Positions 33,500 to 50,803 of a stretch of DNA of 64,000 nucleotides are shown here, piece after piece. Source of the stretch: an uncultured Bacilli bacterium (GTDB lineage: Bacteria > Bacillota_I > Bacilli_A > RF39 > UBA660). The position numbers and the translations under genes are program-made. Under the pieces are notes generated by a model. That model ran no database searches and had not been told where the DNA came from. It saw only the letters and a program-made list of their open reading frames with translations. The stretch is taken from NCBI GenBank assembly GCA_947627635.1, contig CANQWT010000001.1:18325-82324 (forward strand). The letters run 5' to 3'. Position 1 is the first letter of the stretch. Each line of letters starts with the position of its first letter.

Positions 33500-33501
33500 A
33501 A

Positions 33502-35213: not shown

Positions 35214-35335
35214 TGTATCATTTCATCTTGATGCTTGACAACTATAAATAAAGTTTCAAAGGAAATATTCTTTTCTACAATAAAAAAGTGATAACTTGAA
35301 AGCTTTAGTTGTATCACTTTTTCATTGGTTTTAAT

Positions 35336-35776: not shown

Positions 35777-35929
35777 CCTTTCTTAAACTAAGTGTATCAC
35801 AAATTAAGAGAAATGTTACCGATTATTTCATCTTTTTTAAAGTTCTTTATGAAAAGGTGTTATAATTAAATAAGAAGAAAAAATATATCATTTATCTCTT
35901 ACAAAAATATGATATGAGGATGTGATAGA

Positions 35930-36226: not shown

Positions 36227-36255
36227 AAATCAAAGTATAGAGGAAGGATGATATT

Positions 36256-37032
36256 ATGAACTCTAACAAAATTATAGAAACGATTAAATTTCTTATTGTG
36301 ACAATTGTTTTATTGCTTGTTCTTTTCTTTTTAATCACCATCAATTTGGATGCGAAAGGAATAGCAAAAATTATGTTTCTACCTTTTATTGTTGCTTTAT
36401 TTATTGATTTATTATATCAAATTTTTCGCTATTTCAATAAACCAGTTCAAGCAAAAATCTGTTATTTTATTGGGATAGCTACAGTTTTTACTTATTTTTT
36501 TGGAATACTTTTAGTTGGAACTATCCAGGCAATTGCTGCCAAAGAATATAGTAGCCTTTTTTATATTCTTCCATTTTGGGTCATCGTGATTTTTGCTCTT
36601 ATCATAAAAATTCGTCCTCCACAACTAAGTGATAAAGCAAAGGAAATCATAGAAACGATTATCTTTATTTCAATAATTGCTCTTAGTGCTATCGCAGGTC
36701 TTACTTGTATTTTACTAGGGATTTTTTCAAAACAGATAGAAGGGTCAAGAGCATTTCCTATTCTATTCGGTGTTGTCTTTCTTTTCGCATCTTTGTGGAT
36801 GCTTGCTTATCAACTAAAGTTGAATGAGAAAATCTCCTTTAAGAATATAAATATTGAGTTTGTTTTAGTGAGTGGCTGTTTTGTAGTAGTTGGAACAGTC
36901 ATTCTTGGAAGTCAAATCATCTCTGCAACTTCGATTATGGATTTCTTTAAAAACTTTAATGCAACCTCAATTATTTCACTGTTGTTTATTGTTGTTGGAG
37001 TGCTTGCTATGGTTCAAAATTTTCATAAATAA
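36256..37032 (+). CDS. Polytopic membrane protein, unknown function
   Basis: About 7 hydrophobic helices. Confidence 0.45.
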   Translation: MNSNKIIETIKFLIVTIVLLLVLFFLITINLDAKGIAKIMFLPFIVALFIDLLYQIFRYFNKPVQAKICYFIGIATVFTYFFGILLVGTIQAIAAKEYSSLFYILPFWVIVIFALIIKIRPPQLSDKAKEIIETIIFISIIALSAIAGLTCILLGIFSKQIEGSRAFPILFGVVFLFASLWMLAYQLKLNEKISFKNINIEFVLVSGCFVVVGTVILGSQIISATSIMDFFKNFNATSIISLLFIVVGVLAMVQNFHK

Positions 37033-37086
37033 AGATAGTAAAATCCAAAAAAATTAGATATAATAAAAAATGAAAGGAATGATAAA

Positions 37087-37965
37087 ATGGAAAAAGCAAA
37101 AGTTTATTTTACAAGAAAGTTAACACCTGAGGCAGTAGTACAATTGTATCAAAAATTAGGAAAAGAACTTCAAGGAAAAGTGGCAGTTAAAGTTCATTCA
37201 GGAGAACGAGGAAATCAAAATTATTTACGTCCAGAGTTTTTAAAACCAATGGTCGACTATGTTCAAGGAACTATTGTTGAATGTAACACAGCTTATGAAG
37301 GTGCAAGAAACACAACTGAAAAACATATAGAACTTATGAAAGAACATGAGTGGAGTAACTATTTTAATGTAGACATTATGGATAGTGAAGAAGATATTAC
37401 TTTAGAAATTCCAAATGGTAAAGTTATTCAAAAAAATTCTGTAGGAAGTCACTTGAAAAATTATAATTCTATGCTTGTTTTATCTCATTTTAAAGGACAT
37501 CCAATGGGAGGTTATGGTGGAGCTTTAAAACAATTATCTATTGGAGTTGCATCAGGAAAAGGAAAAAGATATATTCACTGTTGTGGACATGATGGTTCTT
37601 ATGAGGATATGTTTCATCAAGACCAAGATAGTTTCTTAGAAGCAATGGCTGATGCTGCAAGTAGTGTAACCAACTATTTTAAAGACAACATTTTATATAT
37701 CAATATTATGTGTAATATGTCTGTTGACTGTGACTGTTGCAATGTTGCTGAAGACCCTTGCATGAAAGATATCGGTATTTTAGCATCCACTGACCCTGTG
37801 GCAATTGACCAAGCATGTATCGATTTAGTCACACAGTCAACTGACCCAGGTCGCAACCATTTACTAGAGCGAATTAACTCACGTCATGGACTTCATACCA
37901 TCGAAGCTGCAGAAAATCTTGGAATTGGTACACGTGACTATGAACTTATTGAAGTAGAACTATAA
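37087..37965 (+). CDS. DUF362-like protein with Cys cluster (possible Fe-S ligand set)
   Basis: CCGHDG and CNMSVDCDCCNVAEDPC Cys-rich segments. Overall resemblance to DUF362 proteins is from memory and uncertain. Confidence 0.4.
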   Translation: MEKAKVYFTRKLTPEAVVQLYQKLGKELQGKVAVKVHSGERGNQNYLRPEFLKPMVDYVQGTIVECNTAYEGARNTTEKHIELMKEHEWSNYFNVDIMDSEEDITLEIPNGKVIQKNSVGSHLKNYNSMLVLSHFKGHPMGGYGGALKQLSIGVASGKGKRYIHCCGHDGSYEDMFHQDQDSFLEAMADAASSVTNYFKDNILYINIMCNMSVDCDCCNVAEDPCMKDIGILASTDPVAIDQACIDLVTQSTDPGRNHLLERINSRHGLHTIEAAENLGIGTRDYELIEVEL

Positions 37966-38049
37966 AATTCAACAATTTATACCGTTTAAAACGAAGTTTC
38001 AAAGCATAATTTTTCAAATTTGGAGATACTAAAATTGAGGTGTATCAAA

Positions 38050-38505
38050 ATGCGAAAAAGAAGTGCTTTTTTCTTTGCTTTTCTAATCATAACAACAGTA
38101 ATCATCACATTTGTTTTAGACTGTTCTGCCAAAGAAAAAACAAAAGTCAAACAATATAGGGATGAAGAAATCATCAAAGTTACTCTATTGTTTTCGAATA
38201 AAACAGTAACCACTAAAACTTTAAATCAGCTTTTAAAAAACGAAGGACTTCTTTTAGAAATCTTCTTCCAAAATAATTTATCTTATTTAGATAAGACCAT
38301 GGAAGAAAATTTATCCCATCTTTCTTTTTTTACGATAGAAGACTATGAAAAGTCTTTTGAGGAAAAACTGTTACAATATGGCTTTTTTGATGAGTGTGAA
38401 AAAATTAGTAGGCAAGGCGTGTTATTAAAGAAAGTTATTGTCTTACTTCCTTATAGAAGAATGTTAACTTTAGAAAAAATGGAAGGGGTAAAAGTGGAAC
38501 TTTAA
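38050..38505 (+). CDS. Hypothetical secreted/membrane-anchored protein
   Basis: Signal/TM MRKRSAFFFAFLIITTVIITFVLDCSA. Confidence 0.4.
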   Translation: MRKRSAFFFAFLIITTVIITFVLDCSAKEKTKVKQYRDEEIIKVTLLFSNKTVTTKTLNQLLKNEGLLLEIFFQNNLSYLDKTMEENLSHLSFFTIEDYEKSFEEKLLQYGFFDECEKISRQGVLLKKVIVLLPYRRMLTLEKMEGVKVEL

Positions 38506-38553
38506 CTTCTTTTTATTTTGTGTTATAATGAAAAAAATAAAGGAGGAAGCAAG

Positions 38554-39471
38554 ATGGATACGAAAAAAACAAAAAAGGTCAGTATTTTAACAACCTATGG
38601 TGAAAATTTTTCTAAGAAACAGTTTATTACAAATCCTGCAATTGGTAGGGAAGAAGAAATCAAACAGTTGGTTCTTATTTTGTTAACTCCTGAAAAAAGT
38701 GCGATTTTAACAGGAAAACCTGGTGTTGGTAAAACAGCCATTGTCGAAGGTCTTGCATATCGTATTCAAATTGGAAATGTACCAAATCATTTGAAGGGCT
38801 ATACCATTATCAAAGTCAATACTTCTGCCTTATTAGGAGTAGACCCAGATAGTGGAGAAAGTAAAGTCCAACTATTATTAGATGAGTTAAAAGAATATCA
38901 TAACTTGATTTTGTTTATTGATGAAATTCATACTTTAATGGGTTCTAAAGGAGAAGCACTAGACTTTGCGAATATGTTTAAGCCAGGTCTTGACCGTGGT
39001 GATATCAAAGTCATTGGTGCGACTACAACAGAAGAATATGAACGTTATATTTTAAGAGATAAAGCGTTTGTAAGACGTTTCCAAAAAGTAGAAGTTGAAG
39101 AACCAACAAAAGAACAGACTGTTGGAATTTTAATGGGAACACTTCCTAAAATCGAGAAGAAGACTGGGGCAAAACTCTTGTATAGTCCTTATGTCCAAGA
39201 AAAGATTATGACTTTTTTGACAGAACTTACTAGTGAATATAAAAGGATTTATGAAATAGGTTCACGATATCCTGATATTGCATTAACTCTTTTACAACAA
39301 GCATTCTCTTATGCTGTATTTGATAACCGTGATGAAGTCAATATTTTCGATATTCAAAAAGCTGTAGAAAATACCAAAAATGTCTATCCTGATGTCATTG
39401 AAAAAGAATTGGTTCGCTTTCAAGAAATTTTTGCGAAAGAACTTCAAACAAAAGAAGAGGATAAAGAATGA
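38554..39471 (+). CDS. Stand-alone Clp/Hsp100 NBD1-like AAA+ ATPase
   Basis: Collinear with ClpB NBD1: PAIGREEEIKQLVLIL...ILTGKPGVGKTAIVEGLAYRI (Walker A), ILFIDEIHTLMG (Walker B), GATTTEEYERYILRDKAFVRRFQKVEVEEPT (sensor/Arg finger). No N-domain, middle domain or NBD2. Confidence 0.7.
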   Translation: MDTKKTKKVSILTTYGENFSKKQFITNPAIGREEEIKQLVLILLTPEKSAILTGKPGVGKTAIVEGLAYRIQIGNVPNHLKGYTIIKVNTSALLGVDPDSGESKVQLLLDELKEYHNLILFIDEIHTLMGSKGEALDFANMFKPGLDRGDIKVIGATTTEEYERYILRDKAFVRRFQKVEVEEPTKEQTVGILMGTLPKIEKKTGAKLLYSPYVQEKIMTFLTELTSEYKRIYEIGSRYPDIALTLLQQAFSYAVFDNRDEVNIFDIQKAVENTKNVYPDVIEKELVRFQEIFAKELQTKEEDKE

Positions 39472-39896
39472 AAGCACTCAAAACAGTTTTATATGCTTCA
39501 AGAATTACCTCAAATATTTTCTACTTAATTTTGTTTATTTGGATGCTGCCTTATATTTATGATGCATCATGGCAAGGACTTCTTTTTATTGGAACAACCA
39601 TTATATACGTTGGCTTAACGCTTTGGACACTTCTTAAGAAGAAGCCTATCTTTAAAGAAACGATTAGTTACAACTTGATTATGATTGCTGTATTTTTCTA
39701 TTTTCTCTTGGTGACACTTCGTGTTTTATTTGACCCAAGATTACAAAGTACACTATATACCTTAAATATGGAATACTGTAGAAATAACTTCTTTTTGTTG
39801 AGCATCATTTTAATTGGAATGAGCCTCAATACCGTTTTACTAGCGCTCATTGAAAGCGATAAAGAAGAAGTACCGAAAAAGAAAAGACCCGTCTAG
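39468..39896 (+). CDS. Small 4-TM membrane protein translationally coupled to the AAA+ ATPase
   Basis: ATGA overlap with the upstream ATPase stop. Four hydrophobic helices and a charged C-terminus. Confidence 0.45.
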   Translation: MKALKTVLYASRITSNIFYLILFIWMLPYIYDASWQGLLFIGTTIIYVGLTLWTLLKKKPIFKETISYNLIMIAVFFYFLLVTLRVLFDPRLQSTLYTLNMEYCRNNFFLLSIILIGMSLNTVLLALIESDKEEVPKKKRPV

Positions 39897-39912
39897 GTCT
39901 TATTTTTCTTTA
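39878..39912. terminator. Bidirectional intrinsic terminator
   Basis: AAGACC-CGTCTA-GGTCTT followed by ATTTTTC on the plus strand. On the minus strand GACC...GGTC is followed by TTTTCTTTTT, after the ldh stop. Confidence 0.45.
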
Positions 39913-40817
39913 TAAACACTTTGAATGGCTTCTTTGATGACGTTAATAGAATGAGTTAGTTTTGCTTCTTCCTCTTTGGTCAAGTCCATATATATCCGTT
40001 CTTTTACACCATTTTTTCCCAGAATACATGGAGTTGAAATGTAGACATCATTTTCCTTATCGTAATTTGAAACTGGAAGAATAATTTCTTCATCTTTTAA
40101 AATTGCATTGGTAATTCGTTGTAGAGCCATAGAAATTCCATAGTAAGTTGCCCCTTTTCGCTTAATAATTTCATAAGCAGCATTTCTTGTTTTCTCTTCT
40201 AAAGCTTGTTTTTGTTCTTCACTTACAAAACGGTTTATATCTTGTTGAGCAATATTTGCTTTACTCCAGGCCACAAACTGGGAAGCACCATGTTCTCCTA
40301 AGACGTAAGCATGAATGCTTTTAGGACTTACTCCAAGACTTTCTGCCATGTAGTAAGAAAGTCGGGCACTATCAAGACTTGTTCCTGTTCCAATGACTTG
40401 ATTTGCAGGAAGGTTTGAATAACGATAAGCAAGATAGGTCATCACATCAAGGGGATTTGAGGCAATGAGTAAAATGCCATTGAAGTCTGTTTCGTTGATT
40501 TTTGCTAAGATATCTTGATAGAATACATTGTTTGCTTCTAAATCTTTTAAACGGTCATTTTCTGACTGAGGAATTCCTGCGGTAATGACAATAATTTTGG
40601 CATCATTACAGTCACTATAATCTCCAACTTTTACCGTAATATTGTTTGGAGTAAACTGTAAAGTGTGACATAAGTCAAGACGTTCTCCTTCAAGTTTTTC
40701 TTTATCAATATCAATCATGATAATTTCATCGACGTTATTCATTTGGTTCACAAGAGCATAGATATAAGTCATGCCAACCTTTCCACAACCAATTACGACG
40801 ATTTTATTTTGGTTCAT
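39900..40817 (-). CDS. ldh: L-lactate dehydrogenase
   Basis: NAD-binding VVIGCGKVGMTY. Substrate/catalytic region IVITAGIPQSENDRLKDL, GEHGASQF. Confidence 0.85.
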   Translation of the reverse strand: MNQNKIVVIGCGKVGMTYIYALVNQMNNVDEIIMIDIDKEKLEGERLDLCHTLQFTPNNITVKVGDYSDCNDAKIIVITAGIPQSENDRLKDLEANNVFYQDILAKINETDFNGILLIASNPLDVMTYLAYRYSNLPANQVIGTGTSLDSARLSYYMAESLGVSPKSIHAYVLGEHGASQFVAWSKANIAQQDINRFVSEEQKQALEEKTRNAAYEIIKRKGATYYGISMALQRITNAILKDEEIILPVSNYDKENDVYISTPCILGKNGVKERIYMDLTKEEEAKLTHSINVIKEAIQSVYKEK

Positions 40818-40987
40818 ATTCTACCATCCTCCTACTTGTTAGTATAGCATACTTTTTGCTTTTCTATGCTTTTCTTTGTCAAGCTTTGTGTCAAGTAAGA
40901 AACCAAAAATTTACATTTTTTTCTCTAATCTTATAGACGATACAAAAGGAATTTAGTATACTTTAAATGGAGTAAGGAGTAAGAATT

Positions 40988-42313
40988 ATGAAAAATCAAA
41001 AATTGAAGTGGGTTTTGTTGGGACTTGCAATTTTACTAATTGTAGGTGGTGGAATAGGTGCATATCTTTATTTGAATTCTAGTAAGTATATCTTTGAAAA
41101 AGCAATTACAAAGGCAACAGATACACTAACAGCAAATGAAAAGGAGAAAGAACTCAGTTTTGATACCATTCATTGGGAGACAAATACCAAAGTGAATGAA
41201 GTAGAAGATGGGACAACAACTTCTAATCAGTTTGATGGTACTTTAGGGTTTGACCTTGATAAACAAAAGATGAACCTCAACTTGATTTATCTTTTAAACG
41301 AAGCAAAGATATTGGATTTAGATGCTTTCTTTGAAAAAAATCGGTTTTATTTTAAACTAAAGGATATTATGGAAGAATTTTACTATGTAGAAAGTGATGA
41401 AGATGTTTTCGCATCACTCGATACTCAAGAGGATATCGACTATTCTTATATTGTTAAATATACTAGAGGTGTAATTCTTTCAAGTTTAGCAAATAAGGAT
41501 TTTAAGAAAGAAAGTTCTGAAATTGAAGTGGATAATACAAAAAGTAAGACGACTAAAATTACTTTAAAGTTAACAGAAGAAAAAGTTTATGATATTTATG
41601 TCAATTTCTTCTCAAAGTTAAAGACTGATAAGAAGATGCTTGGTGAAGTTAAGAAAATAAGTAAAGATTTTGATACAAAAGATATCAATACGCTTATTGA
41701 AGAATTTAAGAAAGAGAAAAAGGATGCATCCAGTGACAACTATATTTCTTATGTGATTTATGTAGATGGTAAAAAGAACATTATAAGACAAGAGATTACA
41801 ACAAATGAAAGTGATACAGCTATTAGAATTGATTATCAACAAGATAAGGATAAGAAAAATTATCGAGCAATTTCTGTCATGAGTAACAAACAGGAACTCG
41901 TTTCTTTCATCCTCAAAGATAAGAATGAAAAAGAAGCAGATATTACATTACAAAGTGCTTTTGTAAGTGCGAAAGGAACTCTTGAATATAGTGATAAATT
42001 ATTTGATTTAAAACTAACAATCAATGATTTCCTAGGAAATAAAGTAGGAGACGTTAGTTGTTATTTCAAAGAAGAGAATAAAAAAGAATATACTGTGAAT
42101 GTCCAATTTAGTTATAATGATGGAGAAAATCAAGTTCAATTGAATTCTCAAAACAAAATGATTTTGGACAAAGCATTGGAAGAGTTTGATACAAAAGGAA
42201 GTAAGAATGTTGATGCCTTAACCGAAGAAGAACAAGCAAACTTCTTCCTCAAACTCCAAGAATATTTTGCAACAACTTTATTGGGAAATAGTATGTTAGA
42301 AAATATGATATAA
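40988..42313 (+). CDS. Hypothetical membrane-anchored extracytoplasmic protein, 441 aa
   Basis: N-terminal TM segment. No recognised motif. Confidence 0.45.
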   Translation: MKNQKLKWVLLGLAILLIVGGGIGAYLYLNSSKYIFEKAITKATDTLTANEKEKELSFDTIHWETNTKVNEVEDGTTTSNQFDGTLGFDLDKQKMNLNLIYLLNEAKILDLDAFFEKNRFYFKLKDIMEEFYYVESDEDVFASLDTQEDIDYSYIVKYTRGVILSSLANKDFKKESSEIEVDNTKSKTTKITLKLTEEKVYDIYVNFFSKLKTDKKMLGEVKKISKDFDTKDINTLIEEFKKEKKDASSDNYISYVIYVDGKKNIIRQEITTNESDTAIRIDYQQDKDKKNYRAISVMSNKQELVSFILKDKNEKEADITLQSAFVSAKGTLEYSDKLFDLKLTINDFLGNKVGDVSCYFKEENKKEYTVNVQFSYNDGENQVQLNSQNKMILDKALEEFDTKGSKNVDALTEEEQANFFLKLQEYFATTLLGNSMLENMI

Positions 42314-42414
42314 AAGATTTCCAAAGAAAAACAAATAGCCAAATTGGAAGACTATTTGTTTTTTTATGTTCGCTTGTTTTAGAATGAGCTTTAGTTTTTA
42401 CATTTTCTTTTATC

Positions 42415-42789
42415 TTATTTTCCTTCACGTTTATAAGTATCATATAATTCTTTAAAACGATTAAAGTGAACAATTTCACGTTGTCTTAACCAGAGAAGTG
42501 GTCCTAAAATGTCAGGGTCATCTGTTAAATCGATTAGATTTTCATAGACAGCTCTTGCTTTTTGTTCGGCTGCCATATCTTCAGAAAGGTCGGCAAAGAA
42601 ATCTCCTGTTGTTGAGACATAAGTAATTGTAAAAGGAACACTATCTGCATCAGTTGGATAAAGTGCTTTTCCATGTTCTGTGTAGTGCGCATCAAGTCCT
42701 GCTTTTTTCATTTCCTCTGGAGTTGCATCTTTAGTCAGTTGATAGAGCATGGTAGAAATAATTTCCACATGAGCAAGTTCTTCTGAATA
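42415..42789 (-). pseudogene. cotJC: 3' half of spore-coat Mn-catalase-like gene cotJC, separated from its 5' half by the prophage insertion
   Basis: EELAHVEIISTMLYQLTKDATPEEMKKAGL...AEQKARAVYENLIDLTDDPDILGPLLWLRQREIVHFNRF aligns with the C-terminal ~115 aa of B. subtilis CotJC (EEFAHLEMIATMVYKLTKDATPEQL...AEEKARATYQWLIDISDDPDL...LREREIVH). The frame stays open upstream but homology stops near 42787-42790, and there is no start or RBS. Confidence 0.7.
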
Positions 42790-42884
42790 ACAACGATTGA
42801 AATAAATGTTAGTGATACTTTTATTTATGTCTAACGTAAATGTTCTAAAGAATGAGAACGTTTACGATTAAAGTATAAACAGTG

Positions 42885-44693
42885 CTAGAATTTTGGGTGT
42901 ATTACAATGGAAAAATTATTCTCGTAACCACGTCCGCCCTTATCTTTTTTATATTCTATATAAGATATAACAGACTTTAAAAGTTTGTTTTTCTTTTCTA
43001 TAGAATTAACTTTATTGTATGAATTTATTACTTTTTCTATTTTAGGTAATAACTTTTCTATACTATTTTTATTTAATTTAGATTGGTATTTATTTAATTC
43101 TTTTTCTGTATTTTTGATTCTATCTTTAATTACTTTTGTACGTTCTGTAAATTCTTTAGATGTATATATTCCTTGTTCTACTAATTCGTATGCTTTTTCT
43201 AGTTGTTTGTTATATTTCTCTAAATCTTTACTTAAAGAAATAGCCATAATATTATCTTCTTCCTCAGCTGGAATATATGTACTTAATAATTCTTTTTGAG
43301 TAGTAGCGTACTCTTTTAATCCGTTTATTACTTCTTTTTCAACGATAGAAAGATTAGAACCTATATTAGTACAATGAGCTTTAGAACATATTAAAGTGTC
43401 TTCGTGAGGGCTTATAATATTTTCTTCAAAAGTCATAATTGATTTATCAAACTCTGTTGTTGTTATATTTAATAAGTTTTTTAATTGTTCCCATTTATCA
43501 GCATAAGGAATAGTAAATTTATCTATAGTAGCTGAGAACCAATGATCTACGACACTTTTACTTATATGTAGTTCGTTAGCTATATCACGTAAACTATATT
43601 CTCCTTTATGTTCTCTTAAACATAGTCTCAATTTATCTTTATCGACTTCATACTTGCGTCTTAACTTTGGCTCTTGACCTTTAATTTCGTAATATGGTCG
43701 TCTTTGCATAGTTCTTCCGCAATCAGCACATTTTATCAAAGTAGCTAACGGATTCTGTAAATCAGTACCGTGTTTTGTACTTGTATTTCTAGGCTCTATT
43801 TTTTGTACTATATCAAACAAAGTTTGATCTATAATAGCTTCGTGTAATCCCTCGACTATAATAAGATCTTCTTTATTTCCTCTTTTACGAGTTTTTATAA
43901 TCTGACCGTTAACAAGACTTTTTTGTTGTTTATTATTATTCCACCTTATTTTCCCTAGATAGATTGGATTAGATAACATTCCTTTAATTGTAGACGGAGT
44001 CCATACATCAGACGTTTTAGGCTTAAAATCAGTTGTATTAAGCCAATTACATATTATATTATGTCCCATTCCGTCAGCTCTTTTTTGAAATATCTGTTTA
44101 ACAATTTCCGCTTCTTCTGGTATTATTTCTAAGGTAAAGCCTTTAGCGTATTTTATTTTTACTTTTTTATAGCCAAAAGGTGGCTCAGAAGCACAGTATT
44201 TTCCCTCTAGTACATTTGCAAGTCTTCCACGTTGCATACGCCTATTTATGGTTTTATATTCACGTCTAGACATAAATAATCCAAACTCGAAGTATTCTTC
44301 GTCTTCTTCACTATTAGGATCGTAGATTTTATTAAGAGTTATTATTTTAGTATTAGAGTATTTAAAAGCTTGAGCTACAACTCCTTGATCTTTAGCGTCT
44401 CCACGTGTAAGACGTTCTACTTCTACAACTAATATTCCGTCTACTTCGCCAGTTTCAATATTTTTAAGAATCTTTTGTATTTCTGGACGCTCTTGTATAG
44501 ATTCTCCAGATACAACCTCTTTATATATTTTACGAATTTTTATTCCTAGTTGTTTAGCTCTATCTTTTAAGAATTTTTCGTGTTGCTTTAACGTATCAAA
44601 TTTTTTAATTCGTTCCAATTCCATATCGGCACGAGATTTTCTTAAATAAACATCATATATTCCGTTTGGATCTAACGTAACAGTATTATACAT
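42885..44693 (-). CDS. Large serine recombinase (phage integrase, SprA/SpoIVCA-like class)
   Basis: N-terminal resolvase-type catalytic domain (YLRKSRAD...ILVVEVERLTRGDAKD), recombinase domain, Cys pair CADCGRTM zinc ribbon, and long coiled-coil C-terminus. Lies ~95 nt from the cotJC junction. Confidence 0.8.
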   Translation of the reverse strand: MYNTVTLDPNGIYDVYLRKSRADMELERIKKFDTLKQHEKFLKDRAKQLGIKIRKIYKEVVSGESIQERPEIQKILKNIETGEVDGILVVEVERLTRGDAKDQGVVAQAFKYSNTKIITLNKIYDPNSEEDEEYFEFGLFMSRREYKTINRRMQRGRLANVLEGKYCASEPPFGYKKVKIKYAKGFTLEIIPEEAEIVKQIFQKRADGMGHNIICNWLNTTDFKPKTSDVWTPSTIKGMLSNPIYLGKIRWNNNKQQKSLVNGQIIKTRKRGNKEDLIIVEGLHEAIIDQTLFDIVQKIEPRNTSTKHGTDLQNPLATLIKCADCGRTMQRRPYYEIKGQEPKLRRKYEVDKDKLRLCLREHKGEYSLRDIANELHISKSVVDHWFSATIDKFTIPYADKWEQLKNLLNITTTEFDKSIMTFEENIISPHEDTLICSKAHCTNIGSNLSIVEKEVINGLKEYATTQKELLSTYIPAEEEDNIMAISLSKDLEKYNKQLEKAYELVEQGIYTSKEFTERTKVIKDRIKNTEKELNKYQSKLNKNSIEKLLPKIEKVINSYNKVNSIEKKNKLLKSVISYIEYKKDKGGRGYENNFSIVIHPKF

Positions 44694-44694
44694 C

Positions 44695-44965
44695 TTACAC
44701 CTCCTCACTTTCTAATATTTTATCTACTTCTTTTTCATATTCGGCTATTTTTGATTTATCATAATTTTTTAAATGTCCTAGTTTATAATGTAATATTTCG
44801 TGTCTAAAATGACTTTTCTTTTTGTACGTCAGAAATAGAATCGTTAATTACTATATAAATACTATCGTCTAATTCTAAAATAAAGGCTCTAATTTTATTA
44901 GGTAACTTCATTATTTTTAATTTCAAACCGTATTTTTCGGCAATTTTCGACATTCTTTCGTACAT
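44695..44965 (-). pseudogene. ImmA/IrrE-family HEXXH metalloprotease (anti-repressor protease), apparently frameshifted at an A5 run
   Basis: N-terminal frame: MYERMSKIAEKYGLKLKIMKLPNKIRAFILELDDSIYIVINDSISDVQKEKSF*. The downstream +1 frame continues KKSHFRHEILHYKLGHL... (HEILH). Deleting one A from GTACAAAAAGAAAAGTC restores ...SDVQKKSHFRHEILH. RBS GGAGGTA precedes the start. Confidence 0.5.
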
Positions 44966-45001
44966 AAGTAATACCTCCTAAGACACAGGTACTACTTAAA
45001 A

Positions 45002-45532
45002 TTAGTGTCTATTTCTAGGCTTATAAATATAGCCATTTTCTTTTTTCTTTTGTAGATCTTCTAAAGTCTTATCTATAGTGTCTTTGAATATAGTATCATA
45101 TTTATAAATTGAAATATTTTTGCTAGTATTCAATACTTTAATAGCCTCGTCCAATCTATTCATTTTTACTAATAACTGTGATTCATACATTCTAGGTGGG
45201 GTAAGATATTCCATATCTATACCAGTTTTAGCGTTAAGTTCTATAATTTTCATTATTGAGTTATCAGCTAGCCTACAATGTAGTAAAGCTTTATCAAAGT
45301 TATATTCTTTTTCATATTTTTTAGCTAGTGCTAAATTTTCTTGATAGCTATTATAATAAAAATCGGTTTGTTGGTTGATTTCATTAAATTTACTATCAAT
45401 AGTTTTTTTATTATTTCTAAGATTCTTTCTTTTTTTATTTATTGCTAGTAATATACAAATAATATTTCCTATACCAGCTGTAGTAAAAAAAAGAATAATC
45501 TGTTTAGTTATTTTTTTCATTATTTTTGTCAT
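45002..45532 (-). CDS. Membrane-anchored protein in lysogeny module (superinfection-exclusion/abortive-infection candidate)
   Basis: N-terminal TM and a helical C-terminal domain. Located between the integrase and the repressor. Confidence 0.4.
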   Translation of the reverse strand: MTKIMKKITKQIILFFTTAGIGNIICILLAINKKRKNLRNNKKTIDSKFNEINQQTDFYYNSYQENLALAKKYEKEYNFDKALLHCRLADNSIMKIIELNAKTGIDMEYLTPPRMYESQLLVKMNRLDEAIKVLNTSKNISIYKYDTIFKDTIDKTLEDLQKKKENGYIYKPRNRH

Positions 45533-45929
45533 CTTTCTTGATAATAGTAACTATATCGACAAATTGTTTTAATTCGTCTTCGTTTAAGTCGCCCAGTTTA
45601 TCAAAAAGGACTTTTGCATTTTCATTTTTTACTAAATGATTAAATTTATCATATAATTCATTATCATTTATATATTTATCTATACGAGATAAATCCTCGT
45701 CTTCTATATAGTTACAAGCTTTTAATAATTCTTCATAAGTAACTATACCGTGGCTACCTTTGGAAATTTTTTTGAGAGTTTCTGGACTAGGAGGGTTAAC
45801 AAAATTTCCATTTAGTAATCTTGATAAATGACCTGCATTAACTTGACAAGATAGTGCAAATTGATTCAAAGTTTTATCTCCTTGAGCTTTTTTTATTAAA
45901 TTTATCAATTCATCATAATTTTTTTTCAT
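45504..45929 (-). CDS. XRE-family HTH repressor (CI-like)
   Basis: HTH LNQFALSCQVNAGHLSRLLNG. Divergent from the cro-like gene across the operator region. Confidence 0.65.
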   Translation of the reverse strand: MKKNYDELINLIKKAQGDKTLNQFALSCQVNAGHLSRLLNGNFVNPPSPETLKKISKGSHGIVTYEELLKACNYIEDEDLSRIDKYINDNELYDKFNHLVKNENAKVLFDKLGDLNEDELKQFVDIVTIIKKDDKNNEKNN

Positions 45930-46023
45930 TTATTTTTACACCCACTTTCCCTTTGTTTACAGGCAATATTATACTATATTTTGTTGCTTCCGTGCAAAGT
46001 TTTTTGAAAATTTTTAAAAAAAG

Positions 46024-46074
46024 TATTGCATTGGTGCAATAATTATGTTATATTAGTATTGCATTGAAGCAATA
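46024..46074. promoter_or_regulatory. Two operator copies in the CI/Cro divergent promoter region
   Basis: TATTGCATTGGTGCAATA (46024-46041; 7-4-7 inverted repeat) and TATTGCATTGAAGCAATA (46057-46074). TTATAT and TATATTAG -10-like elements lie between them. Confidence 0.5.
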
Positions 46075-46102
46075 GAGAAAGTTAAAAGGAGGTTTCAATA
46101 GT

Positions 46103-46312
46103 ATGTTAAATGTAGAAAAATTTACAGAATTGGTAGAAGTAAAATTCAATAATAATTATACCAGTTGTGCGAAAGAAATAGGCGTGAATGTAAGTACTAT
46201 ATCAAGAATCCTTAATAAAGAAGTAGAACCTAGTACAAAGTTTATTAAGTTATTTGCTGAATATTGTAAAAAAAATAAAATTGATTTTAAAAAGTATATT
46301 TTTTTAGCTTAA
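46103..46312 (+). CDS. Cro-like XRE HTH protein
   Basis: HTH CAKEIGVNVSTISRILN. AAAGGAGG RBS. Confidence 0.55.
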   Translation: MLNVEKFTELVEVKFNNNYTSCAKEIGVNVSTISRILNKEVEPSTKFIKLFAEYCKKNKIDFKKYIFLA

Positions 46313-46376: not shown

Positions 46377-46595
46377 ATGAAAAAAAAGATTATTCCAGAT
46401 ATAAAGCCTAAAGTATCAATTTCTTTAGACTGTGTACCTACGAATATTGAAGAACGAAAAAACAATATAAAACAATTTTATGATGTCTGTAATGAAGTAA
46501 TAACGGATCCTAACTGTTTCTATTCTAAAGAAGAAATAGAAGAACTCAAAAAGAACGTACAAAAGCAAAAAGAAATGAATATAAAGTTTATCTAA
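46377..46595 (+). CDS. Hypothetical phage protein, 72 aa
   Basis: ORF preceded by AGGAGGG RBS. Confidence 0.35.
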   Translation: MKKKIIPDIKPKVSISLDCVPTNIEERKNNIKQFYDVCNEVITDPNCFYSKEEIEELKKNVQKQKEMNIKFI

Positions 46596-46658: not shown

Positions 46659-46913
46659 GTGGAAAAAATGAAAGTTAAGAGAAGAAAAATAAATTGGTTA
46701 GCTGTGATTTCATTAGTATTGTTTTTAGCAAGTCTAGCCTTAATAATTCACGATTTCTATATGCTTACAATTTATAGCATTATTCATTCTATAACTGTAA
46801 GTCTGACCTGGTTTGGTTTAGGAACTCTAGTTATTGCTTTTATGGTTGCTGGCTGTACTTATGACTATTTAGAAGAAAGATTTACTAGAGTAACAAAAAA
46901 AGAGAGAGCCTAG
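46659..46913 (+). CDS. Small 2-TM membrane protein (phage)
   Basis: AAGGAGG RBS. Two hydrophobic helices. Confidence 0.35.
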   Translation: MEKMKVKRRKINWLAVISLVLFLASLALIIHDFYMLTIYSIIHSITVSLTWFGLGTLVIAFMVAGCTYDYLEERFTRVTKKERA

Positions 46914-46992: not shown

Positions 46993-47697
46993 GTGGTAAA
47001 TATCAATGGTAATTGGATTAAATTGTTTTCTAAGTTTATAAATTGGGAATGGTATAAAGACCAAAATACCAAAAGTTTATTTATTCACTGTCTATTAAAA
47101 GCTAATTGGAAAGACGAAAAGTTCGAGGGAATAGTTGTTCCTAGAGGTAGTTTTGTAACGTCGCTAGATACATTATCAAAAGAATTAGGTTTGTCAGTAC
47201 AAGCAATTCGAACAGCACTAAAACACTTAATTTCAACAAAGGAACTAACAAGCAAAAGTACCAATAAATACCGCATAATTACAATAGTAAATTACGAATT
47301 GTATCAGCAAGTCAACAAGCAAACTAACAATCAATTAACAAGCGAACAACAAACAGGTAACAATCAACTAACAACAATAGAAGAATATATAGAATATAAG
47401 ACTAAAGAAGAATATAAGAAAAATAGTGTGTGTAATGAGGAGACGCAAAAAAATTTTGATTGTCATTTAGGTAGCTTTTATAAAACTTTAACTTGTATAG
47501 ATTGTATGAAGAAATGGAAGTGTCCGCTACCAGACGATCCTACTTTTAAAGGAATACACGGTAAGACATTTTACGAATATGTAGCGGAAAAGGAACTTAG
47601 AAAATTAGAGGTTGCTAAAGAATTAGAAAATATGAAAGAAAGCCCTAACCAAGAACTATTCGAATACGATTGGCTTAATGATAAGGGGGAGGAATAA
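46993..47697 (+). CDS. Putative phage replication protein (replisome-organizer N-terminal domain-like wHTH)
   Basis: WIKLFSKFINWEWYKD...LFIHCLLKANW...VTSLDTLSKELGLSVQAIRTALKHL resembles the phage replisome organizer N-terminal domain, from memory. Confidence 0.4.
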   Translation: MVNINGNWIKLFSKFINWEWYKDQNTKSLFIHCLLKANWKDEKFEGIVVPRGSFVTSLDTLSKELGLSVQAIRTALKHLISTKELTSKSTNKYRIITIVNYELYQQVNKQTNNQLTSEQQTGNNQLTTIEEYIEYKTKEEYKKNSVCNEETQKNFDCHLGSFYKTLTCIDCMKKWKCPLPDDPTFKGIHGKTFYEYVAEKELRKLEVAKELENMKESPNQELFEYDWLNDKGEE

Positions 47698-48344
47698 TGA
47701 AACGTGAAGAATGGCTAGAGGAACGTAATAAAGGTATAGGTGGCTCAGATGTAGCGTGTATCTTTGGTATGAGTCCTTACAAAACAAACGTAGAACTATG
47801 GGAGGAAAAAGTAGGAATAAGAGAACCAGAAGACATCTCTCAGAAAGAATACGTACAGAATGGAACCGATAGCGAGGATCCATTGAGAAAATTATTCGCT
47901 ATAGATTATAAACAATATGAAGTCTTACACGAAGAATACGAAAATATTGTTAATAAAGAATTTCCGTTTATAAGAGTAAGCCCTGATAGTAGACTTATTG
48001 AAAAAGAGACGGGACGCAAAGGCTTTTTAGAAATAAAAAGGTGCGAAATTATGAATCATAGACAATATGAAAAATGGAAAGACGGAAATATTCCGCAAAA
48101 TTACTATCTACAAACATTACAGTATTTTCTAGCTGACGAAGATATGGACTTTGGTTATTTAAGAGCATATCTTATAAGACATTTAGCTGACGGTACTGTA
48201 ATACGTGAGATACGGGATTATGTGATAGCAAATAGTCGCAACGAAGTACAAGACGATCTCGATTATCTTAAACCAAAGGAAATAGAGTTCTGGAATTGTG
48301 TAGAAAACAAAATAAGACCAGCACTTATATTGCCGAAAATATAA
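47697..48344 (+). CDS. YqaJ-like viral recombinase exonuclease (PD-(D/E)XK)
   Basis: GIGGSDVACIFGMSPYKT..ELWEEK is the YqaJ signature. Confidence 0.65.
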   Translation: MKREEWLEERNKGIGGSDVACIFGMSPYKTNVELWEEKVGIREPEDISQKEYVQNGTDSEDPLRKLFAIDYKQYEVLHEEYENIVNKEFPFIRVSPDSRLIEKETGRKGFLEIKRCEIMNHRQYEKWKDGNIPQNYYLQTLQYFLADEDMDFGYLRAYLIRHLADGTVIREIRDYVIANSRNEVQDDLDYLKPKEIEFWNCVENKIRPALILPKI

Positions 48345-48347
48345 AAT

Positions 48348-49214
48348 ATGGAGGAAAAAAATATGGAAACAAATTTACAATTAGTTATTAGTCCATTACA
48401 AAAAATGGAAGCAATTAAATTTAATTATGAAGAATTAAAAGAGGGGTTAAAGTCAAGTCTTACTAAATATCAAAATCTAGTGTATACGCCTGAAACAATA
48501 AAAGAGGCTAAAGACGATAGAGCTAAATTAAATGCACTAGCTAAATCTTTGAATGACGGGAAGATAAATATTAAAAAAGAATTTATGGTACCTTATGACG
48601 AGTTTGAGGGGAAAATAAAAGAACTAATAGAACTTGTTAAAGAGCCAGCCAACGAGATAGATAAACAAGTGAAAGTTTTTGAGGAGCAAGAAAAAGCCAA
48701 AAAACGTAAAGAAATAGAGGAAGTTTATCAAGAAAATATAGGTAATTACTCAGATTTAATTTTGTTAGAGAAAATATATGATTCTCGTTGGGAAAATAAA
48801 ACTTATAAAATTACAGACATAAAAAAAGAGATTCAAGATGTTGTTAAGAAAGCTGATAGCGATTTAAAAGTTATTGAAAGTCAAGATCCAGAATTTTTAA
48901 ACAATATGAAAGATGTTTATTTTAATACTTTAGATTTAGGACAAGCTTTAGTAGAAAAAGATAGATTAACTAGACTAAAAGAAACTTTAAAATCTAAGGA
49001 AGAAGTAAAAGAAACAACAGTAAATGACGATAGTGTGGACGCTGTTAGATATGCTACTGAAAATATAGGAGTAGATACTTCTAAAGAGGAATCAGTACAG
49101 GTAAATTCAAAAATAGTAAAAATTACATTTACTGTAGAATGTACCGAACAACAACTACTTGCTTTAGGACAATATATGAAAAATAACGGTATTAAATATG
49201 GGAGGGCTGAATAA
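48348..49214 (+). CDS. Hypothetical coiled-coil phage protein between exonuclease and RecT
   Basis: ORF only; highly charged. Confidence 0.4.
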   Translation: MEEKNMETNLQLVISPLQKMEAIKFNYEELKEGLKSSLTKYQNLVYTPETIKEAKDDRAKLNALAKSLNDGKINIKKEFMVPYDEFEGKIKELIELVKEPANEIDKQVKVFEEQEKAKKRKEIEEVYQENIGNYSDLILLEKIYDSRWENKTYKITDIKKEIQDVVKKADSDLKVIESQDPEFLNNMKDVYFNTLDLGQALVEKDRLTRLKETLKSKEEVKETTVNDDSVDAVRYATENIGVDTSKEESVQVNSKIVKITFTVECTEQQLLALGQYMKNNGIKYGRAE

Positions 49215-50113
49215 TGGCTGTTGCTAATAAACTAGTTCCAGCTACCTCACAAAAACCAAAAGTAACATTTACTGACTATATAGCTGGAGAAAATATTAAG
49301 AAAAAAATTAACGAAATGGTAGGAGGAAAAAATAGTCAGAGATTTATTACAGCTGTCGTAAGTGCTGTTTCAAATAATAGAGATTTAGGAATGTGTAATC
49401 CTAGCACCATTATTGCTGGAGCACTATTAGGAGAAGCTTTACAACTATCTCCGTCTCCTCAATTAGGACAATATTATTTAGTTCCTTATAACATCAAAAG
49501 AAAAGACGCTCAAGGTAAAGATTATTGGGAAAAAGTAGCTCAGTTTCAATTAGGTTATAAAGGCTATATTCAATTAGCTATTAGAAGTAATTTCTATCGT
49601 GATTTAGATGTTTTAGAGGTTAGAGAGGGAGAATACCTAGGACGTGATAAAAATACTGGTAAGCACCGTTTTAATTTCATAACTAACGAAGAAGAAAGAA
49701 ACTCTAAAGCTGTAGTAGGTTATTTAGCATACTTTGAATATACAAACGGATTTACTAAAACTTTATATTGGACTAAGTCAGCTATGGAAAATCACGCTAT
49801 TACTTATAGTAAAGCTTATGCGTCAGACAAAGAAAAAAATACTAAATTTAGTTTTTGGACGACTAAGTTTGACGATATGGCTTTTAAAACAATGATAAGA
49901 CAACTAATTTCTCGTTGGGGAATTATGTCTATAGAAATGCAAACAGCTTTTGAAAGAGATATGGCTGTTATCAATGAAAATGAAAGCTACGAGTATGTCG
50001 ATAATGACGATTCTATGGTTCCAGACGAGCCAATTATAGAACCACCTATAGAAAAACCAGTACAAGAACAAGAACCAGCGGACAATGCTGTAGACCAATT
50101 CTTTAATCAATAG
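49214..50113 (+). CDS. recT: RecT-family single-strand annealing protein
   Basis: VTFTDYIAGENIKKKINEMVGGK...FITAVVSAVSNN...LGQYYLVPY is RecT-like. Confidence 0.75.
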   Translation: MAVANKLVPATSQKPKVTFTDYIAGENIKKKINEMVGGKNSQRFITAVVSAVSNNRDLGMCNPSTIIAGALLGEALQLSPSPQLGQYYLVPYNIKRKDAQGKDYWEKVAQFQLGYKGYIQLAIRSNFYRDLDVLEVREGEYLGRDKNTGKHRFNFITNEEERNSKAVVGYLAYFEYTNGFTKTLYWTKSAMENHAITYSKAYASDKEKNTKFSFWTTKFDDMAFKTMIRQLISRWGIMSIEMQTAFERDMAVINENESYEYVDNDDSMVPDEPIIEPPIEKPVQEQEPADNAVDQFFNQ

Positions 50114-50124
50114 GAGGAATAAGA

Positions 50125-50385
50125 ATGTATATCGTAAACTTACTAAGTATGGAAAAACGTATAAAAGCGTATTTAACCAGTGAAAAAGAAAAAATAAATA
50201 AAGAATATGAGGTTTTAGACAAACCAACTAAGTATATGTGTGATCTAGAAGTTAGTTTTACTGAGGATTTATTAAAGCTAATTGATAACTATAAACAAAG
50301 ACTTGATAAGGTTACAGATATACTCATAGAAAATTCAAAGGAGGGAAAGAATGAATCTAGTAGTACAAACAGGACGCTTAGCTAG
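50125..50385 (+). CDS. Hypothetical phage protein, 86 aa
   Basis: ORF only. Confidence 0.3.
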   Translation: MYIVNLLSMEKRIKAYLTSEKEKINKEYEVLDKPTKYMCDLEVSFTEDLLKLIDNYKQRLDKVTDILIENSKEGKNESSSTNRTLS

Positions 50386-50803
50386 AGATGTTGAATTGAG
50401 ATACACGCCGAATAATAAAGCTGTAGCTCAATTCACTATAGCTGTAAGAAAAAGTTTTATTAAAGAAAATGAAGACGAAACAGCCTACTTTTTCCCAGTT
50501 ATTATATGGGGAGCTCAAGCCGAAAATTGTAAAAAATACTTACATAAAGAAAGTAAAGTAGGAGTTACTGGAGAATTAAGAAGCCGAAGCTATGAAAAAG
50601 ATAATCAAACTAAATATGTTACTGAAATAGTAGCCGATAGAGTAGAGTTCTTAGAACCTAAAGCAAAAGATAATACTAATACCGAACAAGATAACTATAT
50701 GCCAAACGAAGAAAATATACCGTACGAACCAGAAAGAGAACAAGCGTCGCTTTATGACAATGACTATATAAATCAAATTAGCGACGACGATCTACCGTTT
50801 TAA
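50351..50803 (+). CDS. ssb: Single-stranded DNA-binding protein
   Basis: OB-fold N-terminus MNLVVQTGRLARDVELRYTPNNKAVAQFTIAV and acidic DDDLPF tail. Confidence 0.85.
   Translation: MNLVVQTGRLARDVELRYTPNNKAVAQFTIAVRKSFIKENEDETAYFFPVIIWGAQAENCKKYLHKESKVGVTGELRSRSYEKDNQTKYVTEIVADRVEFLEPKAKDNTNTEQDNYMPNEENIPYEPEREQASLYDNDYINQISDDDLPF

Follow-up and report, generated by a model that had tools for sequence, protein, structure and literature searches.

A temperate prophage inserted at the metal-binding motif of the spore coat gene cotJC in an uncultured Bacilli bacterium

A split cotJC gene and the adjoining prophage

The window, i.e., the whole 64-kb stretch of DNA that was analyzed, joins a host flank and a 5′-truncated spore coat gene to the left part of a prophage. 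The following features were annotated:

39900 to 42313, both strands: host flank with ldh (minus) and the gene of a 441-aa protein (plus), syntenic with the unoccupied locus L004 (blastn identity, 94 to 98%)
42415 to 42780, minus: cotJC 3′ fragment (codons 65 to 185 plus stop; B′ side of the bacterial attachment site), without a usable start codon
42755 to 42810, minus: hybrid attachment site at the integrase end, where the core joins a phage arm to a cotJC arm; from junction comparison
42778 to 42780, minus: core GAA, common to attB, both junctions, and attP; found by comparing attB in L004 with the window junction and with L008
42781 to 64000, not strand-specific: left ∼21.2 kb of the prophage, running past the window end; host identity to L004 stops at 42780
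42885 to 44693, minus: large serine recombinase (LSR; int), i.e., phage integrase, 602 aa, co-oriented with cotJC
44695 to 44965, minus: small ImmA/IrrE-like (HExxH) gene in two frames, with a +1 shift at TTT T (∼44806 to 44809)
45002 to 45532, minus: 176-aa protein of the lysogeny operon, function unknown; no Pfam or PHROG match
45504 to 45929, minus: cI-like HTH repressor, which opens the leftward lysogeny operon; int closes this operon (repressor: HTH_3, E = 2.8e-4; phrog_18248, transcriptional regulator)
46103 to 46312, plus: Cro-like HTH protein, which opens the rightward early operon (HTH_3, E = 4e-6; phrog_3642)
46993 to 50803, plus: replication/recombination module with DnaD-like loader, RecE/YqaJ-like exonuclease, phrog_674 (unknown function), RecT-like protein, and SSB (PHROG, E = 1e-25 to 1e-64)
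58087 to 63279, plus: packaging/head module with large terminase, portal, minor capsid protein 2 fused to Ntox50, and scaffold

The minus-strand open reading frame (ORF) at 42415 to 42768 matched the Pfam Mn_catalase profile over positions 70 to 189 of 284 (E = 3.7e-25) and was 100% identical to the C-terminal part of P0001, a 111-aa database fragment, which bears out its first-pass annotation as the C-terminal piece of CotJC. It shares one 90% cluster with P0122, an intact 185-aa CotJC that matches PF05067 and aligns to the Mn catalases 1jku and 4r42 from residue 1 through the EExxH motif. The traits of the CotJC family (∼185 aa, Mn_catalase fold, E and ExxH ligands, and a gene directly after cotJB) were all found. 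The split gene is identified as cotJC by this homology and by its place directly after cotJB in L004. A CotJC-specific model is absent from NCBIfam, and CotJC falls short of the cutoff of the generic ManCatBAC model.

Nucleotide identity to the intact allele (L004:943-1500) extends from the stop codon to window position 42780, corresponding to gene nucleotide 193 onward, with none beyond. The end of homology had initially been placed a few bases too far, at ∼42787 to 42790, and the missing N-terminal portion estimated at ∼75 aa; the actual number is 64. An apparent S-E-E extension past the junction arises because attP and attB are alike beside the core (TCAGAAGAA versus ACTGAGGAA). Upstream of the fragment, the reading frame contains stop codons, no start, and no replacement N terminus. 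Neither a second Mn_catalase sequence nor the cotJC 5′ half occurs within the 64-kb window, which ends in head genes. Either piece of cotJC alone cannot yield a functional Mn-catalase-type coat protein.

The translation start of the LSR was set at the ATG at 44693, with the GTG at 44708 being only the mechanical ORF start; an exact database lookup of the protein from the GTG returned no match, and the ATG version is the called gene. The protein carries Resolvase (PF00239; E = 1.4e-13) and Recombinase (PF07508; E = 3.7e-25) domains and a partial Zn_ribbon_recom domain (PF13408) with an E value of 0.0018, below the Pfam cutoff. Compared with a 519-aa relative, its zinc ribbon is split by an extra segment of ∼90 aa between the two Cys pairs. 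The catalytic Ser20 lies in YLRKSRAD, and R18-K19-S20-R21 is invariant in alignment A1. Its closest solved structure in the PDB is SprA/YokA of SPbeta (E = 1.2e-34 over residues 16 to 332). These domains and the top PDB match agree with the earlier assignment of a SprA-class recombinase to the edge of the element. It does lie close inside the junction, at a distance of 104 nt instead of the ∼95 nt first given.

The end of the ImmA-like gene overlaps the int ribosome-binding site. When joined, its 89-aa product gave a Peptidase_M78 match that spans the frameshift (E = 2e-4; score of 21.5 bits, with a cutoff of 22). The two-frame form is kept in three lineages with protein-level conservation past the shift, and this conservation favors recoding over decay. 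Relatives also carry an ORF in the same place as the 176-aa gene. A scan for sigma-70 promoters and terminators near int was unremarkable. Of the tailed-phage modules, those for lysogeny and replication are visible in the window, as are the terminase, portal, minor capsid, and scaffold genes; tail genes fall outside it, and an endolysin was found at the far end, in L008. The phage modules look intact as far as the window extends, and relatives suggest a whole-phage size of probably about 38 to 45 kb. No GenBank phage gave a megablast or DNA match to it, and IMG/VR held only relatives with 80 to 84% LSR identity, as viral genomes of 27 to 37.5 kb.

Reciprocal junction and attachment sites

The pieces missing from the window were taken from metagenome contigs of the same species and phage (L004 and L008). 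L004 represents the unoccupied locus with an intact cotJB-cotJC allele, in the gene order cotJB-cotJC-(441-aa homologue)-ldh-AAA, where the end of cotJB (PF12652) meets the start of cotJC. The other junction, consisting of cotJB, cotJC codons 1 to 65, and the phage endolysin, lies on the metagenome contig L008; its source sample also yielded L003, in which the window junction is reproduced at 99.96% identity. The reciprocal junction is also present in L009. The first-pass annotation had asked whether the far prophage end borders the cotJC 5′ half; in L008, rather than in the window's own contig, it does, with cotJB ahead of the 5′ half, and L008 plus the window junction reproduce the L004 allele in register (...TEELAH...). 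That annotation would have taken a far end without a cotJC 5′ fragment, or halves that fail to rejoin in frame, as simple gene destruction; the far end in L008 carries the 5′ fragment and the rejoined cotJC is in frame, so neither applies. The window junction recurs with 99.9% identity in two independent ENA assemblies (L002 and L003), and it is not an artifact, because both carry the identical join. Within the species the insertion is polymorphic: four contigs (L004 to L007) have the intact allele in a matching gene neighborhood, and several have the split one.

The insertion lies within the coding sequence, at codon 65 of 185. We infer that the crossover dinucleotide is GA (42780-42779), within the codon for Glu65 of the E-x-x-H metal-binding motif; the conserved context of this codon is T-E-E-x-x-H. 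Specifically, TCAATCGT at 42800 to 42793 in the phage arm pairs with ACGATTGA in the opposite phage arm (L008), and the attP of the window phage, as deduced from its two junctions, would be an inverted repeat of TCAATCGT and ACGATTGA centered on GA. The same GA is the center of attP symmetry in L012 and L022, which are real attP sites of relatives, and in the mini-elements described below. The attB sequence is ...ACTGAGGAACTTGCTCAT..., and the deduced attP sequence is ...TTATTCAGAAGAATTGTATCAT.... A short dyad attP, a minimal identity core shared with attB, and a 2-bp crossover, as are typical of serine integrase sites, were all found. The attP 24-mer had no match in IMG/VR or JGI metagenome contigs. 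Because serine-recombinase exchange is conservative, recombination between attL and attR would restore cotJC exactly and in frame. The structural model, in which LSR-driven insertion of a temperate phage at Glu65 split cotJC in a manner reversible by excision, is almost certainly correct.

Site specificity across the recombinase clade

The LSR clade is large, spanning 35 to 100% identity. In species-representative genomes, 56 of 80 LSR relatives (35 to 72% identity) adjoin cotJC fragments, all broken at codon 65. The human-gut phage LSR P0193, 80% identical to that of the window, is indexed in 434 assembly-collection blocks; 9 of the 10 places listed for these 434 blocks adjoin a cotJC 3′ fragment at the CAGAAGAA junction. 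These nine places represent seven different cotJC sequences with mutual identities of 50 to 81%, while the phage itself is 99.9% identical; every P0193 place read came from metagenome assembly. Sequence comparison shows that the window LSR is a member of a broad clade dedicated to this one cotJC position. In the terms of PMC7192596, these are independent integrations by one integrase clade into the same domain at the same position.

Element sizes in the clade range from ∼37.5-kb phages down to mini-elements of 3.3 to 5.8 kb. At six loci (L050, L055, L062, L068, L094, and L097), an intact LSR separates the two cotJC halves, which lie 3.3 to 5.8 kb from each other; apart from the LSR and a conserved small ORF immediately upstream of it, these mini-elements contain hardly anything. 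The attP forms of two related phage types (L012 and L022) indicate that relatives excise or circulate as free phage. Some LSR relatives adjoin a YaaH/SleL-like gene instead of cotJC, and yaaH has been listed beside cotJC as a recurrent integration target among sporulation-related genes. Some related human-gut temperate phages carry diversity-generating retroelements.

Excision in the mother cell and alternative readings

In Bacillus subtilis, cotJC is a mother-cell (sigma-E) gene, and on this knowledge the target is counted here as a mother-cell sporulation gene. In the mechanism that we propose, int would be expressed as the last gene of the lysogeny operon, behind the genes of the repressor, the 176-aa protein, and the ImmA-like protein, a phage recombination directionality factor (RDF) would set directionality, and the prophage would remain silent in growing cells and in the forespore. 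Excision in the mother cell, and also on lytic induction, would give back cotJC. This SPbeta-like mode seems the most likely one, because cotJC is expressed in the mother cell and the mother cell is a dead end. Taken as a whole, a cotJC-splitting phage that is excised in the mother cell is the explanation that we lean toward, with its developmental timing, considered separately, standing at roughly an even chance.

Mother-cell excision of LSR elements from sporulation genes has precedent (PMC4191935, PMC5595907, and PMC5025042), and several tested elements of this kind (skin, SPbeta, vfbin, vrin, and gin) do excise in sporulation. SPbeta in spsM of B. subtilis (SprA integrase plus SprB RDF) is likewise an apparently complete temperate phage that splits a mother-cell-expressed spore-envelope gene, the frame of which is restored by conservative excision. 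It differs in its target (spsM versus cotJC), in having an SprB-like RDF gene beside int, where the window phage has the ImmA-like gene, and in being an unrelated phage by DNA. The SPbeta genome measures 134 kb, whereas relatives of the window phage measure ∼37.5 kb. The initial description of this phage as SPbeta-like therefore holds for its apparent intactness and not for its affiliation, given that no GenBank phage matches its DNA.

The skin element in sigK (SpoIVCA; B. subtilis and Clostridioides difficile) similarly has its recombinase at the edge, immediately upstream of the 3′ gene fragment and in the same orientation, according to 10.1101/2022.02.25.481979. An element of this kind can also be an inducible phage, as PhiS63 in sigK of Clostridium perfringens demonstrates (PMC3442830). 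Excision of skin is under strong selection because the sigK regulator is essential in late sporulation; in contrast to these two cases, the product of cotJC is a coat enzyme and frequently redundant. The non-prophage element gin in gerE of Bacillus cereus ATCC 10987 (GirC LSR) resembles the 3.3- to 5.8-kb cotJC mini-elements rather than the window phage. In the active lysogeny of Listeria phages A118 and phi10403S in comK, a serine-integrase phage also splits a gene that is switched by reversible excision (PMC7192596). There, excision occurs in the growing cell and is followed by reintegration, which would be unnecessary in the cotJC case because the mother cell would be terminal. C. difficile phi027 was considered as a cotJC precedent and rejected, since it adjoins a CotJC-like gene instead of lying inside it and has a different attP.

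The strongest alternative is ordinary lysogeny with plain disruption of cotJC, where the E-E-x-x-H codons would be a conserved, dispensable landing site, excision would be lytic only, and spores would lack this CotJC or rely on paralogues. We regard this as a serious possibility, somewhat short of even. Several observations are consistent with it. The integrase gene sits within a standard repressor-ImmA-int module, the insertion is polymorphic in the species (four intact contigs and several split ones), and one 99.9%-identical phage occupies seven different cotJC genes, a spread that points to opportunistic integration into whichever member of the family is present. No RDF was recognized among the phage ORFs by family search or by position next to int. 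The 53-aa ORF beside int was rejected as an SprB-like RDF, as it is the first part of the ImmA/IrrE-like HExxH gene. The conserved 45- to 47-aa ORF upstream of the mini-element LSR was also discarded as a shared RDF, because its HMM matched nothing in the window; that it acts as an RDF in the mini-elements is our guess. Two ORFs of 72 aa (46377 to 46595) and 84 aa (46659 to 46913) had no family match and are positional RDF candidates. When the phage was scanned for the sigma-E/sigma-K consensus, matches were as numerous as in shuffled sequences, with no sigma-E match and no sigma-E/K-like motif in a telling position; the scan also missed its control, the region upstream of the host's own cotJ genes, and is therefore uninformative.

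Loss of this CotJC may also be affordable. Paralogues are common (PMC13492147 and PMC11222575), e.g., three CotJC-like candidates in Turicibacter sanguinis (PMC13492147), and B. subtilis mutants without the protein in the coat are stated to have no apparent defects (PMC12122855). Plain disruption might be tolerated on both counts, i.e., the several paralogues in many spore formers and the absence of apparent defects in mutants. No sample with both the occupied and the empty site was found. However, LSR relatives adjoin genes tied to sporulation (cotJC and the YaaH/SleL-like gene), which fits repair in a terminal mother cell without proving it, and mini-elements free of phage genes retain an intact LSR inside cotJC in many species. 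Plain disruption is further at odds with the sporulation excision of the several tested elements of the kind.

A decaying or defective skin-like remnant that forms no particles, with its recombination unit alone functional, is very unlikely. Only the left half of the phage is visible, the two-frame ImmA-like gene could pass for decay, and neither an attP nor a free-phage contig of the exact type was found in IMG/VR, JGI metagenomes, or GenBank phages. Nonetheless, every module in view is made up of full-length ORFs that match their families strongly, three lineages retain the two-frame form, L008 shows an intact lysin end, and relatives with 80 to 84% LSR identity exist as attP-form contigs and as IMG/VR genomes of 27 to 37.5 kb. 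The sequence probably derives from a metagenome-assembled genome, but a chimera of phage and cotJC fragment has a negligible chance of being correct, in view of the identical junction in L002 and L003, the reciprocal one in L008 and L009, and the same break dinucleotide in dozens of unrelated genomes.

Returning to excision in the mother cell, a broader and rather doubtful proposal is that the cotJC-specific LSR clade constitutes Firmicutes-wide developmental switches. Abundant human-gut temperate phages and their mini-element descendants would leave at the time of cotJ expression, the catalase would be made only after their loss, and the phage would perhaps replicate and be released at mother-cell lysis. 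If so, phage spread would be coupled to sporulation in gut commensals. Sporulation-timed excision in itself would add cotJC to sigK, spsM, spoVFB, spoVR, gerE, and yabG as a gene rebuilt in the mother cell.

A cotJC-targeting element, first thought to be undescribed, has in fact been mentioned before. Abe et al. 2013, as cited in the available portion of 10.1101/2021.11.22.469490, reported cotJC-interrupting elements, and the available text of [quoted passage not shown] (10.1101/2022.02.25.481979) describes a skin-like element that interrupts cotJC of Laceyella sacchari. These elements share the target gene and the element class with ours and, in the portions available, are one-line mentions without att sites or phage characterization. 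The supplementary text of PMC7192596 has no cotJ or catalase entry. The window phage is thus a new, well-resolved instance, with cotJC already reported as a target.

The element is not a laboratory curiosity, a close relative being indexed in 434 assembly-collection blocks. Cultured strains with a related LSR beside a cotJC fragment, namely Clostridium methylpentosum DSM 5476 (L083), Caproiciproducens galactitolivorans BS-1 (L081), Anaeromonas frigoriresistens D2Q-11 (L060), and Bacterium 1XD42-1 (L090), appear to hold such insertions, so the timing of excision is open to direct test. The attB site is conserved across Clostridia and Bacilli because the metal-ligand motif constrains it, and the precisely mapped attB/attP pair (attP deduced) could help to integrate DNA into gut spore formers on which genetic work is difficult.

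Both junctions of the cotJC insertion and its unoccupied site

The split gene and the recombinase lie side by side on the same strand of the window.

Features at the left junction
42415-42768, minus strand: Mn_catalase-matching ORF (3′ part of cotJC); Pfam Mn_catalase, profile positions 70-189 of 284, E 3.7e-25
42885-44693, minus strand (that of the cotJC fragment): large serine recombinase (LSR, int); Resolvase E 1.4e-13, Recombinase E 3.7e-25, partial Zn_ribbon_recom match

The open frame of the cotJC fragment runs upstream as far as the motif SEELAH, beyond which it has stop codons and lacks a start. A gap of 104 nt separates the fragment/phage junction from the LSR, whose start in gene calls elsewhere is the ATG at 44693 (602 aa). 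These features confirmed the observation of the first-pass annotation that a prophage splits cotJC, with an LSR beside the junction. The 64-kb window contained no tRNA genes and no second Mn_catalase sequence, the latter indicating that the other prophage end lies outside it.

At 90% identity, the cotJC fragment represents a cluster that further includes an intact 185-aa CotJC (P0122) and two N-terminal fragments of 72 aa (P0121, ending …GTEELYHLRLI) and 68 aa (P0123, ending …GTEELTQ). The P0122 gene directly follows cotJB (PF12652) on four contigs. On contig L004, its further neighbors are those of the window (a 441-aa gene, ldh, an AAA ATPase, and others), and DNA identity to window 33353-42780 is 94 to 98%, with the match ending at 42780. 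The L004 locus is the unoccupied bacterial attachment site (attB) of the same species. The right junction is known from a sister contig, L008, and not from the window's own contig; L008 belongs to the same sample (ERZ27249148) as L003, an assembly 99.96% identical to window 41545-46153. The gene order in L008 is cotJB, cotJC codons 1 to 65 with a short tail (P0121), and then, on the opposite strand, a phage endolysin (CHAP + CW_7), i.e., the far phage end is flanked by the cotJC 5′ half, as had been anticipated. Base-by-base comparison revealed that L008 tracks attB through gene nucleotide 195 and the window from gene nucleotide 193 on, the sole stretch common to both junctions being GAA (window 42780-42778). 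Joining both phage arms yields the predicted phage site (attP), …TTTCAATCGTTGTTATTCAGAA-GAA-TTGTATCATTTACGATTGATA…, where an inverted repeat (TCAATCGT/ACGATTGA) centered on the GA of the core has the geometry expected for a serine-integrase site with a 2-bp crossover. This attP was absent from IMG/VR and JGI contigs. With the intact allele as reference, joining the cotJC halves restores the gene in frame (…ACT GAG GAA CTT GCT CAT…; TEELAH). Both results, the second of them likewise expected in the first-pass annotation, argue in favor of a reversible split.

The alignment of P0122 with the Mn catalases of Lactobacillus plantarum (1jku) and Anabaena (4r42) begins at residue 1, and its E65-x-x-H68 lies opposite the E-x-x-H motif of these enzymes, in L. 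plantarum the metal ligands Glu66/His69. The crossover therefore falls inside the codon of a predicted metal-ligand glutamate. Helices 1 and 2 (with E35) are cut off by the break from the remainder of the four-helix bundle.

A recombinase clade and its targets

Among LSRs of 600 to 602 aa, protein searches revealed a very large family ~80% identical to the window enzyme. Its member P0193 occurs in 434 indexed blocks of the assembly collection, and the 10 places listed were examined, all from ENA metagenome assemblies (one record labeled human gut). A Mn_catalase C-terminal fragment follows int in 9 of the 10, with differing host neighborhoods; the tenth (L012) has the phage lysin after int and is thus the attP form. 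L012 and L011 are on the same scaffold at a distance of 37.5 kb, the result of either two lysogens in tandem or an assembly run round a circular form. The sequence at all nine junctions is …TCTATCGTTGTTATACAGAAGAA|, and host codons for x-x-H-x-E-M-I come next. Among these nine places (within L011-L020; junctions near position 5860), the LSR is identical and the phage arm 99.9% identical over 5.8 kb, and the interrupted cotJC occurs in seven versions with a mutual identity of only 50 to 81%, pointing to either an unusually broad host range or the use of several cotJC paralogues. The host flanks have 26 to 30% G+C.

A third type, P0128 (LSR 84% identical), has an attP inverted relative to int, which therefore adjoins the 5′ and not the 3′ half of cotJC (L021:5806-6040). 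Its attP form is L022, and the crossover position in cotJC is the same as elsewhere. The 68-aa fragment of L010 has the same break as L008 with a different phage arm, and may belong to a P0128-type phage. Near the lysin end of related phages lies an apparent diversity-generating retroelement (L012:5962-9809; L022:6131-9806), the putative parts of which are a reverse transcriptase (RVT_1), an Mtd_N-type target protein, and a Phage_tail_APC match.

Scanning species-representative genomes with the LSR alignment retrieved 80 loci with relatives 35 to 72% identical, from MAGs (Clostridia, Lachnospiraceae, Ruminococcus, Oscillospiraceae, and Bacilli) and several isolates. A cotJC fragment adjoins the LSR in 56 of them, invariably (56/56) broken at codon 65, …GA(A/G) GAA|. 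The clade that contains the window LSR is dedicated to codon 65. Several relatives without cotJC nearby adjoin other split genes, identified from translated motifs only as GH18 YaaH/SleL-like (break at …EWGYTY|GPPMAVAP…) and AsnB-like (break near DEIFGGYPWF); these loci are L041, L053, L096, L100, and L105 (and L035, L075, and L082), together with L037 and L088.

In six mini-elements (L050, L055, L062, L068, L094, and L097), the cotJC halves are 3.3 to 5.8 kb apart, with an LSR of ~520 aa and variable cargo between them (ToxN, a RhuM-family protein, an AAA ATPase [AAA_14/DUF4143], and an MFS transporter). Directly upstream of the LSR, all six conserve a 45- to 47-aa ORF (M.LEEYTLENTKIKFYDDYIVENI.TQKEYIDNVIINLI), and the derived HMM matched at E < 1e-5 in 31 loci overall. 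Most loci share, upstream of this ORF, the same order of elements: a near-perfect sigma-70-type promoter (TTGATT-17-TATAAT), a hairpin with a T-run, and CATAAAT immediately before the ribosome-binding site. In the 602-aa LSRs, the two Cys pairs of the zinc ribbon are separated by an extra ~90-aa segment (window 43400-43676, minus strand; residues ~340 to 432), seen by comparison with a cotJC-targeting relative of 519 aa; the segment contains a helix-turn-helix-like stretch, SLRDIANELHISKSVVDHWF.

Precedents and proposed timing of excision

Prophages or remnants with an LSR that split mother-cell sporulation genes are well known. SPbeta/spsM is the closest functional analogue, and its SprA is the best structural match of the window LSR (E 1.2e-34). 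Contrary to the first-pass annotation, cotJC is not a new target: a 2021 preprint (10.1101/2021.11.22.469490) already gives it, alongside yaaH, citing Abe et al. (2013), and a 2022 preprint on Firmicutes sporulation gene set conservation (10.1101/2022.02.25.481979) reports that the cotJC of Laceyella sacchari contains a skin-like element. The proposed structure stood (both junctions and in-frame rejoining), and the claim of novelty did not. A search of the open-access literature found no paper mapping att sites, showing excision, or describing cotJC-targeting phages in gut bacteria; base-pair resolution of the insertion and the breadth of the LSR clade are added here.

At the sequence level, the comparisons establish LSR-mediated conservative site-specific integration at a fixed dinucleotide, which inactivates cotJC and is, on paper, exactly reversible, as well as the existence of attP-form relatives. 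In the mechanism we propose, int would be made from the lysogeny operon, a recombination directionality factor (RDF) would set the direction of recombination, and excision would take place upon induction and, as the analogy with SPbeta, skin, vfbin, vrin, and gin suggests, also in the mother cell. We consider such developmental excision about as likely as not. It is favored by the presence of sporulation-tied genes (cotJC and YaaH/SleL-like) among the targets of the LSR group, the intact LSRs kept by non-phage mini-elements inside cotJC, and experimental precedents within this element class. Against it, CotJC is often redundant, with three CotJC-like candidates in Turicibacter sanguinis (PMC13492147); Bacillus subtilis mutants missing the protein from the coat are stated to have no apparent defects (PMC12122855); and the conserved E-E-x-x-H coding sequence alone makes a good broad-host landing site. 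A sigma-E/sigma-K pattern scan gave nothing above shuffles and was uninformative, as the host cotJ upstream region, used as a control, also remained unmatched.

No RDF was recognized in the window. The HMM of the mini-element ORF found no homologue there, and the ORF adjoining int was ruled out by the nature of its product.

The gene beside int and the phage layout

Immediately upstream of int, a small gene reads in two frames (window 44695-44965, minus strand; also L021:3729-4000 and L011:3700-4000). Its first part ends …QKEKSF and the +1 frame continues RHEILHYKLGH…, with a stop overlapping the int ribosome-binding site. Three phage lineages with LSRs 80 to 84% identical to that of the window share this +1 break (TTT-T-AGA, TTT-C-GGA, and TTT-C-AGA); across them, the +1 codon is again Phe, UAG, CGG, or CAG comes next in the 0 frame, and the protein is conserved downstream of the break. 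The joined 89-aa product is ImmA/IrrE-like with an HExxH motif, and the Peptidase_M78/IrrE match spans the join (E 2e-4). The arrangement appears to be an ImmA-type anti-repressor protease gene with prfB-like programmed +1 ribosomal frameshifting, and not a pseudogene.

To the right of int, the layout is typical of a temperate phage.

Phage genes to the right of int
45504-45929, leftward: HTH repressor of the lysogeny operon, then a 176-aa gene, the small ImmA-like gene, and int
46103-46312, rightward: Cro-like HTH of the early operon, then two small ORFs without assignment
After these ORFs, rightward early operon: DnaD-like loader, RecE/YqaJ-like exonuclease, PHROG family of unknown function, RecT, SSB, HNH endonucleases
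Up to the window end: packaging/head genes (large terminase, portal, minor capsid protein 2, scaffold)

Polymorphic toxin domains on MuF-type phage proteins are a known type; the minor capsid protein 2 (SPP1 gp7/MuF-like; window 60792-62345, plus strand) carries a C-terminal fusion to an Ntox50 toxin domain (E 1.3e-21).
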